A DNA stretch of 64,000 bases from a virus, in the IMG/VR virus record IMGVR_UViG_3300035698_006513; one strand, given 5' to 3'. Each line of letters begins with the position of its first letter. Position 1 is the stretch's first letter. Made by a program: the position numbers and the translations under genes. Under the pieces are notes generated by a model, which was not told the DNA's origin, searched no databases, and worked only from the letters and a program-made list of their open reading frames with translations. Shown here in pieces: positions 3,060-46,836 of this stretch.

Positions 3060-4568
3060 ATGAGGCTACTCCCTCAATACGAAATTGTACAAACAGAGGG
3101 AGAGGCTCAGAGGTTATTATCTCGCATAATGCTGCAACCCGAGGTCTCTGTTGATACAGAGACTGAGGGAGATAAGAAGGCAGACCGCTTAAATCGTTGG
3201 AAATCAACGGTTAATTGTTGGTCTGTCTCCTTTAAAGATGTAGCCTGTGCAGGTGGAGCAAATCGTATAGCAATACCTTATGATTTGCTTTTTATGTTTG
3301 AGCCCTTCTTTCAAGCAGAACACATAGACAAGATCTTCCATAATGCGCCGTTCGACTTGTGTATGCTGCATAATTCAGGAATACGTAATGTTAAAGGTAG
3401 GATCATCTGCACAGCAGCATTAGATGCTGTCATAGATGAGAACCGTTTTGGGGCACATGGGCTTAAGGAATGTTCGTGGGACTACTTGCAACTCATCATG
3501 CGTACCTTTGAGGACACGTTTGGTAAAATACCCCTTAACGAGTTTACAATAGTAGAGAAAGCGGATTACGCAACAGAAGATGCATGGGCTACACTGCTAC
3601 TATATTGGAAACTTCGGGATCTTGCTGAGGGTGAAGAGTTAGGTGAGCAGCATGGAGAGACGTATTCCCTTTGGAATATGTACGAAGACCACATCATACC
3701 ATTCAATCGCACTATTACTAATATGTGCATCCGCGGGTGGAGACTAGATAGAGAATACCTATCTAGACTGGGACCTGCAATCCAAAATGACATAGAGCAG
3801 ATAGACTTTGTGTTTAATAGGTATGCAGCCATACACGCCGCACATCAAGGTATCGCGTTACACGAATTAGAGTGGGAACGTGGCGTTAAACACAAAAGAA
3901 TGCGTCCCGTATTCCCAGACGGAATAATAAATCCCGGATCTAATAAACAACTCGCGTATTTCTTTGTGGAAGTTCTAGGTCTTCCTATCATCAAGATGAC
4001 TGAAGGGGGGCAGTCAGGTGTACCAGACATCTCTATGGATGACTCTGTGCTCAAAGAGTATGTCAAATCACATGACTGCAACTTCGCGTCATTAGTACTG
4101 CAACGTAGAAGCCTAAACAAAAGTCTAGGCACATATGTACGTGGTCTCCAGAAATGGATGGATACGCGAAACAAGATACATGCGTCATTAAGAGTTATGG
4201 GTGCGCGTACAGGTAGACTATCCTGCTCTGATCCCAACCTTCAAAATATACCTAGGCCGGACGGGGATATATACGGTCTACGATCTGCATTTATTGCAGA
4301 TCGAGGACACGTACTCATCGTTGCTGACTACTCTACACTAGAGATGCGTATTGCTGCATCTATGTCTAAATGCCCTGACCTCATTGAGGCAATTAACTCG
4401 GGCTTAGACCTACACTGCCAAACAGCAGCGAATATGTTTGGTATACCTTACGACGACCTCTACTACGCCAAGGAAAATATCCATAACATGGAACTTAGCC
4501 TAGCAGAGCGACTCACACTGGCTCCTTTAGTAGCACAGCGTGGTGCAGCTAAAGCTATTGGATTCGGT
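3060..4568 (+). CDS. polA: Family A DNA polymerase, exon 1 (3'-5' exonuclease, motif A, first half of motif B)
   Basis: ExoI DTET, ExoII HNAPFD, ExoIII YATEDA, TGRLSCSDPNLQNIP, motif A ADYSTLEMR; motif B RGAAKAIGFG breaks at 4568. Confidence 0.93.
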
Positions 4569-5324
4569 TTGACCGGAACTGATTCATTTGGTATTGTGTC
4601 TCTATAAGGAGACAACTATGAAAACTATACAAGTTACTTGTGAGCACTGTGGAGTACATTTTACATATGAGCGTGTACGTATCGACGGAGGTAGGTACCG
4701 GAAGACATGCGACGTGTGTAGAAAAGATAACCGCCGTATAAAACAGCGATCTGCGGATATGAAATTCCGTGAAAATAGAGGTCATGTTGTTGGGTGCGGT
4801 TCTGGTGGTAATCAGTGGGGTGATCACAACCATTCATGGAAGGGTGGTTGTGTACGAGTATGGAGACAGCTGTGTTTCGAGGCACACGGAGCTGTATGTG
4901 CACATTGTGGGTTCACACCACAATCACGTGAAACATGGCACCTACTCGTAGCTCACCATATTAACGAAGACCGTACTGATAATAGAACGGAAAACTTGCG
5001 CGCAGTGTGCAAGAAATGCCATCAGAATATTGAACATCTACAGGTGCGCAATACCAAAGGTCAGTATGATGGCCGAAATAAAACTGCGGAATAAAGCGGG
5101 GACGTCCTAAAAGCAGGATAACCCGAACCGAAGACTAGGAGTAATATTCTAGTCAGGGGCAACGACTAGGTGACGAAACTATCTTAGATAGAATGTAATT
5201 CACCCACGAGGCCGCGGCACCGAGATACTTAGGTATGGTGGTGAAAAGATAGTCTGGACTGTGCATATAGCTTAATAAGAAAGCACAGAAGTATTGGATA
5301 AAGAGCCAGTACGGTAACAAAGCG
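4569..5324 (+). mobile_element. Group I self-splicing intron (756 nt) in polA
   Basis: Exon ends in U and intron ends in G; removal restores KAIGFGILYG. IGS GCCGAA 5072-5077, P3 CTGCGG 5084-5089/CCGCGG 5212-5217, P4 CGGG/CCCG, P6a GACTAG..CTAGTC, P7 GACTA 5164-5168/TAGTC 5250-5254, P9 CTGTGC/GCACAG. Confidence 0.9.
4618..5094 (+). CDS. Intron-encoded HNH homing endonuclease
   Basis: AAGGAG SD before ATG 4618. N-terminal CEHC..CDVC zinc ribbon, NHSWKGG motif, CAHC..HHINEDRTDNRTENL..CKKCH HNH core. Confidence 0.9.
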   Translation: MKTIQVTCEHCGVHFTYERVRIDGGRYRKTCDVCRKDNRRIKQRSADMKFRENRGHVVGCGSGGNQWGDHNHSWKGGCVRVWRQLCFEAHGAVCAHCGFTPQSRETWHLLVAHHINEDRTDNRTENLRAVCKKCHQNIEHLQVRNTKGQYDGRNKTAE

Positions 5325-5858
5325 ATTCTATACGGTAGAGGCCCTAGGTCTCTTGCAGAAATACTAGGTCTACAGGAAAAGCATGGGATTAGCGAAAGAG
5401 CTGCTATCCGCATGGCGCAAGACCTAATCAACCAATTTTACGCTGTGTACCCGAGACTACATGCGTATACACAAGAAGTGCTCTGGCAATGTCAGAGAGA
5501 TGAATACGTCCAGACCTGGCTACTTCGTAAACGCAGACTCATATCAATCAACTCTGAAGATGATGCAGCACGGTCTCAGGCAGAAAGACAAACTCTAAAC
5601 TCCATCATTCAAGGTACAGCTTCAGATGTAGCTATGGTGGCGATGAATATGGTCGAGTACGATCCTGTAATGAATGAGATCGGTGCCTCATTGCTGATGC
5701 AAATACACGATGAGCTAATCATACAAGTGCCAGAGCAGCATAGAGTCGTAGCAGAGGCGAGATTGCGATTCCTAATGGAGGAGCCATTTGTTGGGCATTT
5801 CGCAGTAGCATTATCCGTTACTAGCGATAGCGCACTCACATGGGCAGATGCAAAATGA
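5325..5858 (+). CDS. polA: Family A DNA polymerase, exon 2 (rest of motif B, motif C); spliced product 680 aa
   Basis: Reads ILYGRGPRSLAE..., in frame with ORF 5412..5858; AERQTLNSIIQGTASD and motif C QIHDEL. Confidence 0.92.
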   Translation: MLYGRGPRSLAEILGLQEKHGISERAAIRMAQDLINQFYAVYPRLHAYTQEVLWQCQRDEYVQTWLLRKRRLISINSEDDAARSQAERQTLNSIIQGTASDVAMVAMNMVEYDPVMNEIGASLLMQIHDELIIQVPEQHRVVAEARLRFLMEEPFVGHFAVALSVTSDSALTWADAK

Positions 5859-10146: not shown

Positions 10147-11408
10147 TGGAGTTCACTAATGCAGCGCAATTTCAAGACGTACTGGACGGAATGCCCCGAA
10201 ACCAGGACGGGAGCATCATCAGAGGGTCGGCCCACACGTATATAGTTGGCTTGTGTGGTCGTGCGCCAAAGCGCACGAAGGTCCGAAAATTGGCTATAGC
10301 CTGTGGTATGCCTGGTGCAGACGCAGTGTCAATTCAGGACCACGGACAAATAGCCACATTCATACTAGACAAACTTTTGTCTAGTGAGCCCATTGTAGCC
10401 GCGCCCGCTCCACCCCCACCTCCAGCAGAAGTCCCTCATGAAGAACGACTTCGACTCATTCAACATGTACGTGGTTACGAGCGTACCTTCGTAATAGAAC
10501 GTAAACCCGAAGCATGGTGGGCGTCTGCTACTATTGACGCACTCAATTTGTACAAAGTGGAGATCGAGCAGAACGTAGCTGCAGGCGATACTAACACCTC
10601 CGGATCCGAGGAAGAAGTTAGCGAAATGGTAGTAGCACCTACTCCTACGATGGATACAACACAACCTCAACCTCAGCCAATAATTCCAAACACTCCTATG
10701 CACACTCCTATGCACACTCCTGTATACACAGGTGAGCGTGTAACTACTCCCACCAAACGTGACGAGTGGGATGGTATCATTGCAGACTTGATTGGGGACG
10801 GTGTCTCTCCCACGGTCGCATCCCCCACAGGATTCACATGCCCTCAGTTCTTGTGTGACAAAGACCAAGCCCTCGCATGGAAGCTTTGGGTGATTTCTTG
10901 TATGGACCCCACTCAAACCAAAAAAGTCATGGGGGCACGAGACTTAGTTCAGTTGCTAGGTAGAACCGGATTAGAGTGTGATGGAGTGAATGCTCGTAGC
11001 ACTAAGCCTGTGCTACTAAATCTTCTCCAGACTTACCTACTCGAAAATTCCGCAGGTATATTGGAGTTGGCAGAGACACCTGAGCCCTGTCTGCCTGAAA
11101 ATTCACCTACAGAAGTAATCGAGGAATATTCGCCAATCGAATCCGCATCATCTCATGCAGGTGCTTACGAAGAGCGTAGCGGCACACAGCGGTCAAGTGA
11201 AAACATCGACCCCAACCTCATCACTGGTGAAGAAGCGAGACAGATTCTGTTGAACCAGCAGCAAGTATTCACCAACCAGCTAAAATTATGGGAAAATGTG
11301 TCTAGTATAGATGCCGTATTAGCAGAAATGGCTGTTGGTATGCTGCGCGTGCGCACCGACGAGGAGCCCTTGACATGTGCGTCGATCCTCAAGGCTATGA
11401 AGCAGTAG
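10146..11408 (+). CDS. Hypothetical protein with Pro/Thr-rich linkers
   Basis: AAGGAG SD, TAATG coupling, 420 aa ORF. Confidence 0.65.
   Translation: MEFTNAAQFQDVLDGMPRNQDGSIIRGSAHTYIVGLCGRAPKRTKVRKLAIACGMPGADAVSIQDHGQIATFILDKLLSSEPIVAAPAPPPPPAEVPHEERLRLIQHVRGYERTFVIERKPEAWWASATIDALNLYKVEIEQNVAAGDTNTSGSEEEVSEMVVAPTPTMDTTQPQPQPIIPNTPMHTPMHTPVYTGERVTTPTKRDEWDGIIADLIGDGVSPTVASPTGFTCPQFLCDKDQALAWKLWVISCMDPTQTKKVMGARDLVQLLGRTGLECDGVNARSTKPVLLNLLQTYLLENSAGILELAETPEPCLPENSPTEVIEEYSPIESASSHAGAYEERSGTQRSSENIDPNLITGEEARQILLNQQQVFTNQLKLWENVSSIDAVLAEMAVGMLRVRTDEEPLTCASILKAMKQ
10690..10721 (+). repeat. 12-bp tandem repeat ACACTCCTATGC, about 2.7 copies (encodes TPMH repeats)
   Basis: Read directly from sequence. 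Confidence 0.8.
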
Positions 11409-11557
11409 AGTTCTTCCCTGAAGTATGCACCCTAGAAGATCTACAGGAGATTGCCATCGAGCTTCTAGGGTGTGACCCCCTATTTCTATTCGCAATGAAT
11501 CGGGATACGCTGTTAGAGCTCTTAGAGCAAAACGCATATTATCCTGACCCCCAGTAG
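11375..11557 (+). CDS. Small acidic hypothetical protein
   Basis: GAGGAG SD; ends just before a terminator. Confidence 0.5.
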   Translation: MCVDPQGYEAVEFFPEVCTLEDLQEIAIELLGCDPLFLFAMNRDTLLELLEQNAYYPDPQ

Positions 11558-11560
11558 ACT

Positions 11561-11593
11561 CCCCCTTACGCCGTGTGTGTAAGGGGGTTTTTT
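11561..11593 (+). terminator. Intrinsic terminator
   Basis: CCCCCTTAC/GTAAGGGGG stem followed by T tract. Confidence 0.85.
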
Positions 11594-11613
11594 GTTTGTA
11601 GTAAGGAGATATA

Positions 11614-13431
11614 ATGAGTACCGACCTTAGAGAACGCATCCTCCCCGTAGTGGGAGACAATTTCATCAATAAGAACATCACATTCTTTAATGTAGACATC
11701 ACAGGAAAACTGGCAGATGCAGCATACCGATGCGGCAGCAATCTAACTCTCATGTATGATGAGGCACCAAATGTAAGTAGACATCAGCACACTTACCCTG
11801 ATTATACGGCTGCTGCCGCGTGGATGGAGCGTATCAGTGACCATATGCAAGATAATGCCCCTGACCAGTACATGTGTTTAACCCCCTTCGGCATTACGGA
11901 TAAGTCTTACGAGACTGAGCTGATAGTCGCAGCTGGAAATCCTGCCACCGTCTACGTAGCCCTACATGAAGCCAACAAACTGGGGTGTGGTGCTATTGTA
12001 GGAGTGATGACGGAATCTCACGTCGTGGTGTTTTATCGCAACCCTGACGACCCCAAAGTAAAAGAATACACTCAGACTTTTCTTGATGCGTTGGAGAAGA
12101 CCGACTGTATCCAGCCAGGGGCAAAAAACCTTCGTGTGATGGAGTTGCAAGATGCTTTGGGGTGGTTCATTAAAGCACACATGCTTCGCAACGACGAAGA
12201 GCACAGACCGGAGTGGTTGCATAATCAGCTGAACACCAAAAGAAATCTGCTGATACGAGGTGATGCTACTACTCCATACGCAACCTGGATGAACGAAGTA
12301 ACTTATTGCCGTGACTACGGCAGCGTCAAAAGCTATACCCCACCACTGAAAGACCTAAAGGACAAAGAAGTGTGGGTCATTGGTGCTGGTACAGGGTCTC
12401 TGTTCATCCAAGAAGGAATAAAATTCTTCCGGAAATGGACCGTGATTGATTGCAAACCATTCTCCAAATATAATCCTGTGCGACAAGCTGTCGGGTTCGA
12501 GCATGTAGATAAGGAGGTAAAATCCCACCAGATTATGAAACTCATGCGTGACCGCATCAAGAGTTACACTCACGACACCTCCGAGTGGAGTGAGTGGGAG
12601 TCTGCAGACAAAACCGTGCGCAGATACACATCGACACGGAGTACCGCAGACGAAAGCGGAATCTCTGCCTACGTGCGCGGAGTAATTGCGGAACCCACTT
12701 CACAGCTGGACATGAAACACTTGCTTGATAGATTCGGGGAGCCTGATGTAGTTGTGTTAGCCACTGGAGCAACACAGGGTACCAACCAGATGCTCGCAGA
12801 AGAGCTACGCAGACGAGGAATACCTCATGTAGTGCCTTCGGCACTTCCAGGTGCTCTGTACCATAAGCAGATATTCTGCCTTCCTGAACAAGGTACCCCA
12901 TGCATTTCCTGTCTTCAGGGAACGATGGGTATCGACCGAGTAGGACCAGACCTCCCCAGAGAGGCACGAGAACTGTTCTACGGTGGGTCACAACCTGCGA
13001 CACTGTTTGAGACTTACCCATCCGCCCATGCGCTCCTCAGAGTCACGATAGAAATCCTAACCACACACCACCTACGCTCTCCGTGGTTCAGAGAGCTGGT
13101 AAACAATGAGCACACCTGTCTCTTATGGGGTAATGTGGTCCAAACCAAAGATGGCAAACCTCTGTATGACATAGAGACTTTAGGAGAGTTGGTTGCGTAC
13201 TCTCCTGCGCACATGATTGGGTGGCCAGCCTGTGATACGTGCGGTAGATTGAATGGTGCAGCGAGTGCACAGCCGTGTATGCATTGTGGTGTAGCAGGAA
13301 GAGCTAAAGGTAGTGAATTCTGCTCACCTGGACATGCGACCTTGTACCAAGTCAACATGGCGCGAGCTAAAAAGGAGAGAGAGGCGGCTGTGCAGGAGTC
13401 TATTGAGCCATCGGGACTTATTACCTTATAA
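11614..13431 (+). CDS. ThiF/MoeB/E1-like adenylating enzyme with unknown N-terminal domain and C-terminal Zn finger
   Basis: VWVIGAGTGS Rossmann loop, VIDCKPFSKYNPVRQ..K (ThiF D..N..RQ..K), DVVVLAT, PCISC and PACDTC Zn pairs, CMHC..FCSPGH; strong AAGGAGATATA SD. Confidence 0.75.
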   Translation: MSTDLRERILPVVGDNFINKNITFFNVDITGKLADAAYRCGSNLTLMYDEAPNVSRHQHTYPDYTAAAAWMERISDHMQDNAPDQYMCLTPFGITDKSYETELIVAAGNPATVYVALHEANKLGCGAIVGVMTESHVVVFYRNPDDPKVKEYTQTFLDALEKTDCIQPGAKNLRVMELQDALGWFIKAHMLRNDEEHRPEWLHNQLNTKRNLLIRGDATTPYATWMNEVTYCRDYGSVKSYTPPLKDLKDKEVWVIGAGTGSLFIQEGIKFFRKWTVIDCKPFSKYNPVRQAVGFEHVDKEVKSHQIMKLMRDRIKSYTHDTSEWSEWESADKTVRRYTSTRSTADESGISAYVRGVIAEPTSQLDMKHLLDRFGEPDVVVLATGATQGTNQMLAEELRRRGIPHVVPSALPGALYHKQIFCLPEQGTPCISCLQGTMGIDRVGPDLPREARELFYGGSQPATLFETYPSAHALLRVTIEILTTHHLRSPWFRELVNNEHTCLLWGNVVQTKDGKPLYDIETLGELVAYSPAHMIGWPACDTCGRLNGAASAQPCMHCGVAGRAKGSEFCSPGHATLYQVNMARAKKEREAAVQESIEPSGLITL

Positions 13432-13665
13432 CCTAATACCTTTGTTACGCAGCCCACGCATTATATGCGTAATGACTTTGTCCATAGGTTGAACAATTTG
13501 GCCAGGTACTTGTAAATGCCCTCTGGCAGCAAGTGGTTGTAGCTCATATCCACAATGTACACATGCCCCTTTGGTTCTGTAATCAGACATGGGCATTTTT
13601 TTTGTAGTACTTACTGTACCACAGCCCTTACAGAATACTTGGTCTGGAGATGGTTTGCTGCTCAT
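13426..13665 (-). CDS. Small Zn-ribbon protein
   Basis: CKGC..CVHC; ATGA-coupled to upstream gene. Confidence 0.55.
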   Translation of the reverse strand: MSSKPSPDQVFCKGCGTVSTTKKMPMSDYRTKGACVHCGYELQPLAARGHLQVPGQIVQPMDKVITHIMRGLRNKGIRL

Positions 13666-45210: not shown

Positions 45211-45271
45211 AGCATATTGACTTACCTAGGGTAACTGTACGAAAATATCCGACATTACTATGGAGGTGTAC

Positions 45272-45664
45272 ATGATACATTTTATGGCGGGTTTACAGAT
45301 CACTGATGTCACATCATATCTTATCGCTTCTGGGTCATTAGCGTTAGCCGTATTGTTTATACGTAAGTGGATAAACCGTATAGACAAGCGCGTAGACACA
45401 GCAGACGCGGCACTGAAGAGTGCTAAAGTTGCTACAGATGACCTACAGAGTGAAGTAGATGGGTTGAAAGCAGAGGTGGCTACACTAAGAGACGAGATTG
45501 TGCTTAAGGAGGCTACTGCGAAACTGGAAGGGAAAGTTGACGTTATTACGGGATTGGTATCGAATGCTACGAAAGTAAACCATGACCTGATGCGTGAGCA
45601 GATAGACAGTGTTCGCAGAGAGTTTCAGCGAAGTCTCGAAGAGGATAAAAATGCCAAATCTTGA
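45272..45664 (+). CDS. Single-TM coiled-coil membrane protein (holin-like or kinase partner)
   Basis: GGAGG SD; TM YLIASGSLALAVLFI followed by heptad coiled coil; overlaps kinase start. Confidence 0.65.
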   Translation: MIHFMAGLQITDVTSYLIASGSLALAVLFIRKWINRIDKRVDTADAALKSAKVATDDLQSEVDGLKAEVATLRDEIVLKEATAKLEGKVDVITGLVSNATKVNHDLMREQIDSVRREFQRSLEEDKNAKS

Positions 45665-46409
45665 TTCGTGCCCATCAAAAGATTTGATAATTACTGCGAG
45701 AACCCGGCCACTAAGTCCCGAAGAGAGAGACTGTGTAAACAGTTGTCAGTTTGGTGATATAGCAGAGCAATTTGTAAGTATCACACACGACCTAAAGTCG
45801 CCACTACGACACATATCATACTACTTGAATATGGCGATAGAGAGGGCTACAGAAGTAGAGCCAGATACGCAGTTACTAGATTATCTACTGAAGGGTGATG
45901 AGACTATCGACTCGGCATTACGACTCATCAGTAACTTGATGGAGTACTTCGACCCTAAAAGGGGTAAGGATACTTTTAGGATGAACTCGGTGCTAAGAGA
46001 GGCAATTACGTTACAAAACGGCAGCATGGATCGAACCGGAGCAAAAATAAGCATACCTGATGAAGATGTTTATGTGGAATTCAACAGAAAGCATTTGATA
46101 CGCATCTTGTCTAATCTGATTAACAACTCACTAAAGTATAAACATCCCGACCGCGAACCTCGTATAAACATATCTACGTCCAGCTGTGACGACAGGCTAA
46201 CTATCCGATACCAAGATAACGGTATCGGTATTAGCAAGGAACACTGGGAATGGGTATTTGAAATGTTCATGCGGGGTAATCACGATCAAGATGGTTCAGG
46301 GTTAGGTTTAGCACTATGTAAGAAGTTGCTAAAAAAAGAGGGCGGGGACATACGCATATCTGACTCAAGTGATGCAGGCACCACGTTCGAGTTCTTTATC
46401 CCAAAATAG
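45651..46409 (+). CDS. Soluble histidine kinase (HisKA + HATPase)
   Basis: H box THDLKSPL, N box LSNLINNSLKY, G1 DNGIGI, F box VFEMF, G2 GSGLGLALCKK; GAGG SD. Confidence 0.92.
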   Translation: MPNLDSCPSKDLIITARTRPLSPEERDCVNSCQFGDIAEQFVSITHDLKSPLRHISYYLNMAIERATEVEPDTQLLDYLLKGDETIDSALRLISNLMEYFDPKRGKDTFRMNSVLREAITLQNGSMDRTGAKISIPDEDVYVEFNRKHLIRILSNLINNSLKYKHPDREPRINISTSSCDDRLTIRYQDNGIGISKEHWEWVFEMFMRGNHDQDGSGLGLALCKKLLKKEGGDIRISDSSDAGTTFEFFIPK

Positions 46410-46419
46410 GAGATGGCCT

Positions 46420-46836
46420 GTGACTCGACCTATACTCAAGATACTTATAGTGGATGATAGTCCCGTGGATGCAGATATGGTATGCAAGGCGCTGGATGCT
46501 ATAGATGTTGCAATTAAAACGGTTGTACACAACAGCGGATTATCAGCAATAGAATATCTGAACACAACAGAGGAATTGCCTAATCTGGTGTTACTAGATT
46601 TGCACATGCCTCCGCCGAACGGTATGGAAGTGTTAAGACAAATACGGAAGGATACGAAACTGCAGTCTATACCTGTAATCATGCTCAGTGGAACACACAC
46701 TGACGATGTGATCCGAGATGCCTATGCGCTAAACATAAACGCGTACGTAGTGAAACCTGGTAGTTACCGCGCGTTTATGCGAGTCGTAAAGTGCATAGCT
46801 GACTTCTGGCTATGCACCGATATACGACTCCCTTAA
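46420..46836 (+). CDS. Single-domain response regulator (Rcp1/CheY-like receiver)
   Basis: ILIVDD, LVLLDLHMP, IPVIMLS, AYVVKP; AGGAG SD before GTG 46420. Confidence 0.92.
   Translation: MTRPILKILIVDDSPVDADMVCKALDAIDVAIKTVVHNSGLSAIEYLNTTEELPNLVLLDLHMPPPNGMEVLRQIRKDTKLQSIPVIMLSGTHTDDVIRDAYALNINAYVVKPGSYRAFMRVVKCIADFWLCTDIRLP

Follow-up and report, generated by a model that had tools for sequence, protein, structure and literature searches.

Pseudo-dimeric E1 enzymes, in which an inactive adenylation domain (IAD) is joined to an active-type adenylation domain (AAD), were long held to be a eukaryotic hallmark and have only recently been found in the bacterial Bil defence system. In the Bil enzyme, BilD, Arg9 of the IAD reaches the active site, zinc is held by C340/C343 together with C491/C493, and an ~80-aa helical CYS domain bearing the catalytic Cys417 lies between the two zinc pairs (10.1101/2023.09.26.559546). 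BubCD, in turn, is a cysteine-free E1 that works through oxyesters (PMC11601596). The stretch of phage DNA analysed here (IMG/VR virus record IMGVR_UViG_3300035698_006513; 64,000 nucleotides, hereafter the window) carries a gene for a 605-residue protein that belongs beside these enzymes. Its fold and general chemistry are known; what is new is a cysteine-free IAD–AAD E1, its conservation in a clade of phages, a phage-specific zinc finger, and an apparently undescribed operon that houses its cellular relatives. A literature search found no paper on a phage-encoded BilD-type E1 or on any of these four features.

The kinship is apparent in the predicted structure. A whole-protein AlphaFold2 model built on 36 sequences (predicted local distance difference test [pLDDT] 83.5, predicted template modelling score [pTM] 0.86) was searched against 48,161 PDB representatives, and the only two-domain E1s listed rank first and second. 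BilD leads (8tyz_A, Z 24.1, root-mean-square deviation 3.3, 379 residues aligned over model residues 1–546), followed by human UBA1 (Z 22.4, 433 residues aligned); single-domain E1s align over ~220 residues, beginning near residue 170–240. A plain Rossmann dehydrogenase, which the initial annotation of the window, made from its sequence alone, had named as the alternative identity, is not what the model resembles, as short-chain dehydrogenase/reductase folds score Z 10 or less against 20–24 for the E1s.

That annotation had set aside the first 240 residues as a domain of unknown kind. In the model this region is instead a degenerate E1 fold, that is, an IAD. When the domain was modelled alone (residues 1–246, pLDDT 77), its top 19 matches were all E1/ThiF folds (Z 13–17, 190–218 residues aligned), generic Rossmann folds reaching Z 9 or less, and Foldseek ranked SAE1 and APPBP1, the inactive subunits of the heterodimeric eukaryotic E1s, at the top. 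The domain contains neither a GxGxxG nor an NPVRQ motif. With an IAD at its N-terminus, the protein takes its place as a BilD- or eukaryote-type single-chain, IAD+AAD pseudo-dimeric E1. Arg8, invariant in 36 of 36 family members, is most likely the arginine finger, because BilD supplies Arg9 of its own IAD to the active site; the equivalence is drawn from position.

The remainder of the chain had been assigned to the E1/ThiF enzymes on account of its nucleotide-binding motifs, an assignment that the model matches and profile comparisons both bear out. Judged from sequence profiles, the ThiF link is solid, although it is not visible from the single sequence: searches with the 605-aa protein alone in Pfam, PHROGs, and the PDB gave no matches, and PF00899 did not match the window protein at E up to 1, while weakly matching 7 of 10 family members (best E 3.1e-8). 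Aligned as a family of 36 and compared with a ThiF-like profile by hhalign, residues 245–480 match with a probability of 99.5 (E 1.2e-22). Among PDB profiles, the family finds ATG7 best (E 1.5e-6), then the NEDD8 E1 (UBA3), MoeB, Cap2, and TcdA, the matches running through the G-x-G-T-x-G...VD...NPVRQ...K segment. The Gly-rich nucleotide loop (G257-A-G259-T-G-S262) is present, as is the N-x-x-R-Q phosphate-binding motif with its downstream Lys (N287-P-V-R290-Q291 and K303), which aligns to that of ATG7. In the 36 members, R8, G257, G259, D279, R290, Q291, K303, P461, and A462 are invariant, position 260 is always Thr or Ser, and variation at S262, N287, and the four zinc cysteines is rare.

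The zinc ligands first read from the sequence, two CxxC pairs (C430/C433 and C540/C543) and an extra C-terminal finger (C555/C558/C570/H573), are all in place, and so is the reported lack of a cysteine in the crossover loop after PCISC. From C433 to the next core helix there are only ~30 residues, and the first cysteine after PCISC is C502, with none between. C502 was considered as the catalytic cysteine and rejected, since it is not conserved and its column varies across the family (V, S, L, F, N). Column conservation over the 36 members likewise revealed no conserved cysteine outside the zinc sites, no catalytic cysteine, and no CYS domain. The absence of an E1 cysteine from the whole family makes it a family trait rather than a peculiarity of the phage. 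A strongly conserved motif is found in the crossover segment instead, R452..F-Y-G-G-[ST]-Q-P-A-T..E-T-x-P-S, of which only [QE]-P-A-[TS] and a Ser or Thr at position 467 persist family-wide.

These features set the protein apart from each described E1 in a different way. With BilD (PDB 8tyz/8tz0) it shares a single chain, an N-terminal IAD and C-terminal AAD without a ubiquitin-fold domain (UFD), an arginine finger (here putative) near the N-terminus, and zinc coordination by two crossover-loop and two near-C-terminal cysteines. It differs in its short, cysteine-free crossover, in an added C2CH finger and helix in the phage copies, and in sequence, identity being ~9%; no Bil-specific or PADLOC model matched it. 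The eukaryotic E1s (UBA1, SAE1/SAE2, NAE1/UBA3) have the same IAD/AAD pseudo-dimer, with SAE1 and APPBP1 nearest to the N-terminal domain, but the phage E1 has none of their FCCH or SCCH cysteine domains, UFD, or catalytic cysteine. ATG7 is similar in total length and shares the GxGTxG..VD...vS..NPVRQ motif; however, the phage N-terminal domain aligns to ATG7 residues 296–564, its adenylation domain, and not to the N-terminal E2-binding domain of ATG7 (the window protein has no ATG7_N match in Pfam), and the phage protein has no catalytic cysteine. BubCD (PDB 9ea5) also has a crossover loop free of cysteine, in which an aromatic hydroxyl residue (Tyr) is invariant. Unlike the unfused phage E1, it is a homodimer, is fused to a JAMM peptidase, and has no IAD, and the hydroxyl residue Y456 of the phage protein is kept only in the main clade of the family; 9ea5_A matches the model (Z 19.3) over the AAD only. 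In the Bub E1s as a group, which include BubBD, the fusion partner is JAMM or E2. MoeB/ThiF, MccB, PaaA, TcdA, and AclA resemble the phage protein in the adenylation fold, in a zinc site (MoeB), and in having no thioester relay from E1 to E2, but they are homodimers of one active domain that serve cofactor, peptide, or tRNA pathways, and they align to only ~200–240 model residues. Cap2, the E2–E1 fusion with a homodimeric E1 from CBASS (cyclic oligonucleotide-based antiphage signalling systems), differs in that the N-terminal domain of the phage protein is an E1 fold and not an E2; the E1–E2 models of PADLOC match relatives weakly through the Rossmann part and the window protein not at all.

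The family so defined is small. A database search returned nine relatives. An exhaustive search of 1.84 billion cluster representatives with a hidden Markov model (HMM) yielded 186 proteins with E values of 1e-3 or below, 73 of which reached 1e-30 or below. With only 186 matches in a collection of this size, the family is discrete and far from housekeeping ThiF/MoeB, and neither the family search nor the tree groups it with those enzymes, the second outcome against which the initial annotation had guarded. NCBIfam and PADLOC gave weak, generic E1 matches to relatives and none to the window protein, and no model in Pfam, NCBIfam, or PADLOC is dedicated to the family. No relative emerged from IMG/VR, whether it was scanned with the family profile or with the protein. 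Among 50,697 phage records, tblastn found no match for the E1, for a 1157-aa protein, or for the Cas4-like protein of the same genome, and the DNA polymerase was matched only at <30% identity, which leaves no cultured relative for a comparison of synteny. Shorter, single-domain ThiF clusters do occur in Uroviricota in the ESM Atlas, so that phage ThiF-like genes as such are not new.

Four phage proteins belong to the family, namely the window protein, P0001 (whose 7.6-kb contig was placed in the bin of an Alphaproteobacteria metagenome-assembled genome [MAG]), P0023, and P0002, with pairwise identities of 32–45%. All four keep every nucleotide-binding residue, and all four carry the C-x2-C-x11-C-x2-H finger and charged helix, which are absent from the cellular homologues, these ending just after CxCGR. 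The maximum-likelihood tree unites the phage proteins in one clade (SH-like approximate likelihood-ratio test 99) nested among archaeal and low-GC cellular members. The gene also occupies the same position in the four loci, following DnaB, primase, PolA, RecA, and a small open reading frame (ORF) with a terminator, and facing convergent virion genes.

The cellular members come from Myxococcota (Kofleriaceae, Haliangium), from Woesearchaeota and other archaea, and from metagenome contigs. They lie in a strongly conserved cluster whose gene order, small protein, E2-like, JAMM-like, and E1, is that of BilABCD; unlike Bil, the cellular operons also contain ClpB-like and SPFH genes (Table 1). No dedicated family model matched this cluster. 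Its E1, small-protein, E2-like, and JAMM-like genes matched no system-specific model of PADLOC, and the ClpB-like ATPase matched the candidate-system models PDC-M37B and DolB through its AAA+ domain. Profile searches of the PDB with the JAMM and E2-like alignments gave no meaningful matches, and the JAMM profile, when searched against a sequence database, retrieved cellular (Parcubacteria-like) proteins only.

Partners were sought in 84 kb of phage sequence, that is, the window and ~20 kb upstream of it, the latter read as far as position −20,422 in window numbering from contig k141_124246 (124,666 bp) of ENA ERZ27315667, which belongs to the same phage. HMMs of the three cellular partner proteins found nothing in the window or in three other phage fragments, the 20 kb upstream held no partner homologue, and the MAG carrying the related phage fragment L024 had no match to the JAMM profile. 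Pfam searches of 53 small-to-medium ORFs of the window identified 24 families, none of them ubiquitin-like, E2, or JAB, as the initial annotation had it. The gene is therefore an orphan locally, as was claimed, with no partner in the 84 kb; it is not one as a family, which in cells is tied to the small-protein/E2-like/JAMM-like operons. The upstream end of the sequence (L042) is itself peculiar: it is covered by six independent assemblies of the phage from ENA, JGI, and Logan samples, of which the three longest all end inside one 171-aa ORF that follows a single-chain RNA polymerase and the other three stop one or two genes earlier, and this shared break near −20,422 suggests a repeat or hypervariable stretch.

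The E1 gene is at the end of the phage replication module, facing the virion module. Upstream of it lie genes for a primase, a family-A DNA polymerase, a UvsX/RecA-like recombinase, and a Cas4-like nuclease; downstream, all genes are on the minus strand, beginning with a 79-aa zinc-ribbon protein (weak Pfam zinc-ribbon matches; 45% identity to its positional counterpart in phage locus L006) and continuing with large proteins that include a baseplate-wedge-like one, in keeping with the convergence on a virion cluster noted at the outset. The terminator and the strong Shine-Dalgarno sequence that had been reported ahead of the gene were likewise found: the hairpin at 11561–11587 has a stem of 11 pairs (7 G-C) and a 5-nt loop and is followed by TTTTTTGTTT, and AAGGAG precedes the ATG by 5 nt. 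The last gene before the terminator, a 60-aa ORF, overlaps the 3′ end of a 420-aa upstream gene. The same arrangement, an ORF of ~60 aa overlapping the preceding gene by 34–43 nt and then a terminator, recurs in four of four phages (the window, L001, L003, and L006), so that transcription of the E1 gene would require either read-through or an unrecognised promoter. The 60-aa ORF has an aromatic C-terminus and was considered as a possible tag; it was rejected, as the C-termini are not conserved among the four phages and its motif is helix–extended–helix-like, and it bears no similarity to the cellular small protein. Elsewhere in the genome, the family-A DNA polymerase is apparently split into a 515-aa exonuclease/polymerase part (3060–4607) and a 148-aa DNA_pol_A ORF (5412–5858), separated by an HNH endonuclease gene (4588–5094); genes for a histidine kinase (HisKA, HATPase_c) and a receiver-domain protein lie at 45260–46836; and a ResIII helicase gene with an intein-splicing domain match (L035:4725–6848) lies ~3.2–5.3 kb before the start of the window.

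Table 1. Features of the E1-like gene, its immediate surroundings, and the operon of its cellular relatives (window coordinates unless a locus is named)
Feature	Coordinates	Strand	Remarks
E1-like gene	11614..13431	+	ORF, 605 aa plus stop
IAD, residues 1–240	11614..12333	+	E1 fold in the model, without GxGxxG or NPVRQ; Arg8 codon 11635–11637
AAD, residues 245–547	12346..13254	+	G257xG259T260xS262, D279, N287-P-V-R290-Q291, K303, N391
First CxxC pair, C430 and C433	12901..12912	+	Start of crossover loop; read from sequence, column conservation
Short crossover segment	12967..13026	+	No cysteine, no CYS domain; R452..F-Y456-G-G-S459-Q-P-A-T463..E-T467-Y-P-S-A
Second CxxC pair, C540 and C543	13231..13242	+	Read from sequence, column conservation
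Phage-only C-terminal extension	13255..13428	+	C555-x2-C558-x11-C570-x2-H573 finger, then long charged helix (residues 572–596, model)
Terminator-like hairpin and T run	11561..11597	+	Directly upstream of E1 gene; stem at 11561–11587
Shine-Dalgarno AAGGAG	11603..11608	+	5 nt before ATG; read directly from sequence
60-aa ORF	11375..11557	+	Helix–extended–helix-like motif (LxxLxxIAxELLG); last gene before terminator
79-aa double-CxxC zinc-ribbon gene	13426..13665	−	Convergent; stop overlaps end of E1 gene
Conserved cellular cluster, 8–9 genes	L012:4378–16253		Also in L004, L005, L007, L009, L011, L013–L015, L020, L025, L026, L028, L034
Cellular operon, start			Often two SPFH/Band-7 proteins, then a ~205-aa protein
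Cellular operon, small protein			CxCCxP; C-terminal ..VDLSxDDFY
Cellular operon, putative E2-like protein, ~280 aa			Zinc ribbon; UBC-like signature WPxxxPP, PPxHxY, invariant Cys in LCLY
Cellular operon, putative JAMM-like protein, ~320 aa			E34, H122-x-H124, S133, D136 invariant; cysteine-free C-terminal RGWRRY...LPPxFP (RWD-like) domain
Cellular operon, end			E1, then ClpB-like AAA+ protein, sometimes TPM-domain protein

How might such a protein work? The IAD would pack against the AAD and supply Arg8 as arginine finger, while the AAD would bind ATP through the Gly-rich loop, D279, R290/Q291, and K303, and a structural zinc on the two CxxC pairs would bracket the short crossover loop. The enzyme may then adenylate the C-terminal carboxylate of a protein or peptide tag. 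As no cysteine is conserved in the family, the acyl-adenylate would be passed on without an E1 thioester, either directly to a nucleophile of the partner or by way of an oxyester on a conserved hydroxyl (Y456, S459, T463, or T467), as in Bub. A single capture from a cellular small-protein/E2-like/JAMM-like/E1/ClpB-like operon would have brought the gene into a group of large phages, where it was passed on vertically and gained the C2CH finger and helix, probably as a new docking module; its location, at the end of the replication module and behind a terminator, suggests low, read-through expression. We regard the likelihood that the protein is such a working E1-type enzyme, adenylating a protein C-terminus that is passed on without an E1 thioester in a pathway derived from the cellular operon, as evenly balanced. 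The analysis itself establishes the fold, the arrangement of domains, the conserved motifs, and the distribution and phylogeny of the family, from which catalysis, the substrate, and a role in infection are inferred.

Several observations weigh against this proposal. All of the structures are predictions. No gene for a substrate or partner was found within the 84 kb of phage sequence. Even in the cellular operon, the E2 and JAMM calls are made from motifs and single weak Pfam matches (UEV at E 0.023 and Prok-JAB at E 0.03), and the small protein ends in ..VDLSxDDFY and not in Gly-Gly, which leaves the cellular chemistry itself unproven. The most direct concern is the Mg site. At the column of the canonical Mg-binding Asp, hhalign places Gly385, in an ambiguous alignment, and positions 389–391 read D-D-N in most cellular members and G-T-N in the window protein. 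Since the Mg-binding Asp cannot be placed, adenylation activity is plausible but not assured. The acidic pair before N391 is also missing from P0002, and position 391 is Asp or Glu in a distant subclade. A phage-specific loss of the catalytic Asp was considered and rejected: Gly385 is invariant throughout the main clade, about half of the distant clade has Ala there, and the alignment is ambiguous.

Conceivably, the protein is not an enzyme at all but a catalytically dead scaffold that preserves the shape and nucleotide pocket of an E1 solely in order to bind other molecules, for instance a virion component. Gly at the canonical Asp column, the lack of an acidic residue at positions 389/390 of the window protein, and the missing catalytic cysteine would all suit such a role. 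Nonetheless we hold it to be quite unlikely, since Gly385 is a family trait shared by operon-embedded cellular members and not a sign of decay in phages, and since a protein that performs no nucleotide chemistry would hardly be expected to keep R8, R290, Q291, and K303 invariant. The same acidic pair, lost in the window protein and P0002, speaks for a proposal of the initial annotation, that of an anti-defence decoy: the phage E1 would sequester or futilely adenylate the tag or E2 of a host system homologous to the cellular operon and thereby block a host ubiquitin-like defence. No partner lies near the phage copy, Bil and type II CBASS, which are related bacterial systems with E1, E2, and JAB components, act against phages, and the C-terminal finger found only in the phage proteins may have been added for binding. 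However, nothing lends the idea positive support. The phosphate-binding residues and the arginine finger are all retained in four divergent phages, the syntenic position is fixed in the replication module and not in a variable accessory region, and the cellular operon has no demonstrated defence role, its E1, small-protein, E2-like, and JAMM-like genes matching no system-specific model of PADLOC. The retention of these residues at a fixed position fits a working enzyme better than a sponge, and we consider a decoy unlikely.

Granted a working enzyme, its substrate need not be ubiquitin-like. It could adenylate, and do nothing further, a peptide in the manner of MccB or PaaA or a tRNA in the manner of TcdA, as the missing E1 cysteine would allow; MccB, PaaA, AclA, and TcdA are among the fold matches (Z 16–20), and the non-Gly C-terminus and CxCCxP motif of the cellular small protein are reminiscent of a modified peptide. 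Yet the best full-length matches are two-domain, protein-activating E1s, the operon of the family carries E2-like and JAMM-like genes, and those enzymes of this kind that are known to act on peptides or tRNA lack an IAD and form homodimers. Together, these points make a substrate of another kind very unlikely.

The phage E1 extends the IAD–AAD architecture by a third, cysteine-free lineage, found in Myxococcota, archaea, and a clade of large uncultured phages. Should it prove active, the enzyme would widen the known chemistry of ubiquitin-like activation, and such machinery would then be in use by phages as well as by their hosts. A bolder possibility, which we consider rather doubtful, is that these phages perform ubiquitin-like tagging of their own, the cysteine-free IAD–AAD E1 and a JAMM/E2-like protein encoded elsewhere attaching the C-terminus of a phage or host protein to targets in the course of infection. 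If true, this would be the first such conjugation machinery in a virus infecting prokaryotes, and its chemistry would add a third route to those through thioesters (Bil, Cap2) and oxyesters (Bub). The cellular operon, with its SPFH, small-protein, E2-like, JAMM-like, E1, and ClpB-like genes, is a candidate for a new tagging, quality-control, or defence system, and the phage copy offers a handle on what the tag is and what it targets.

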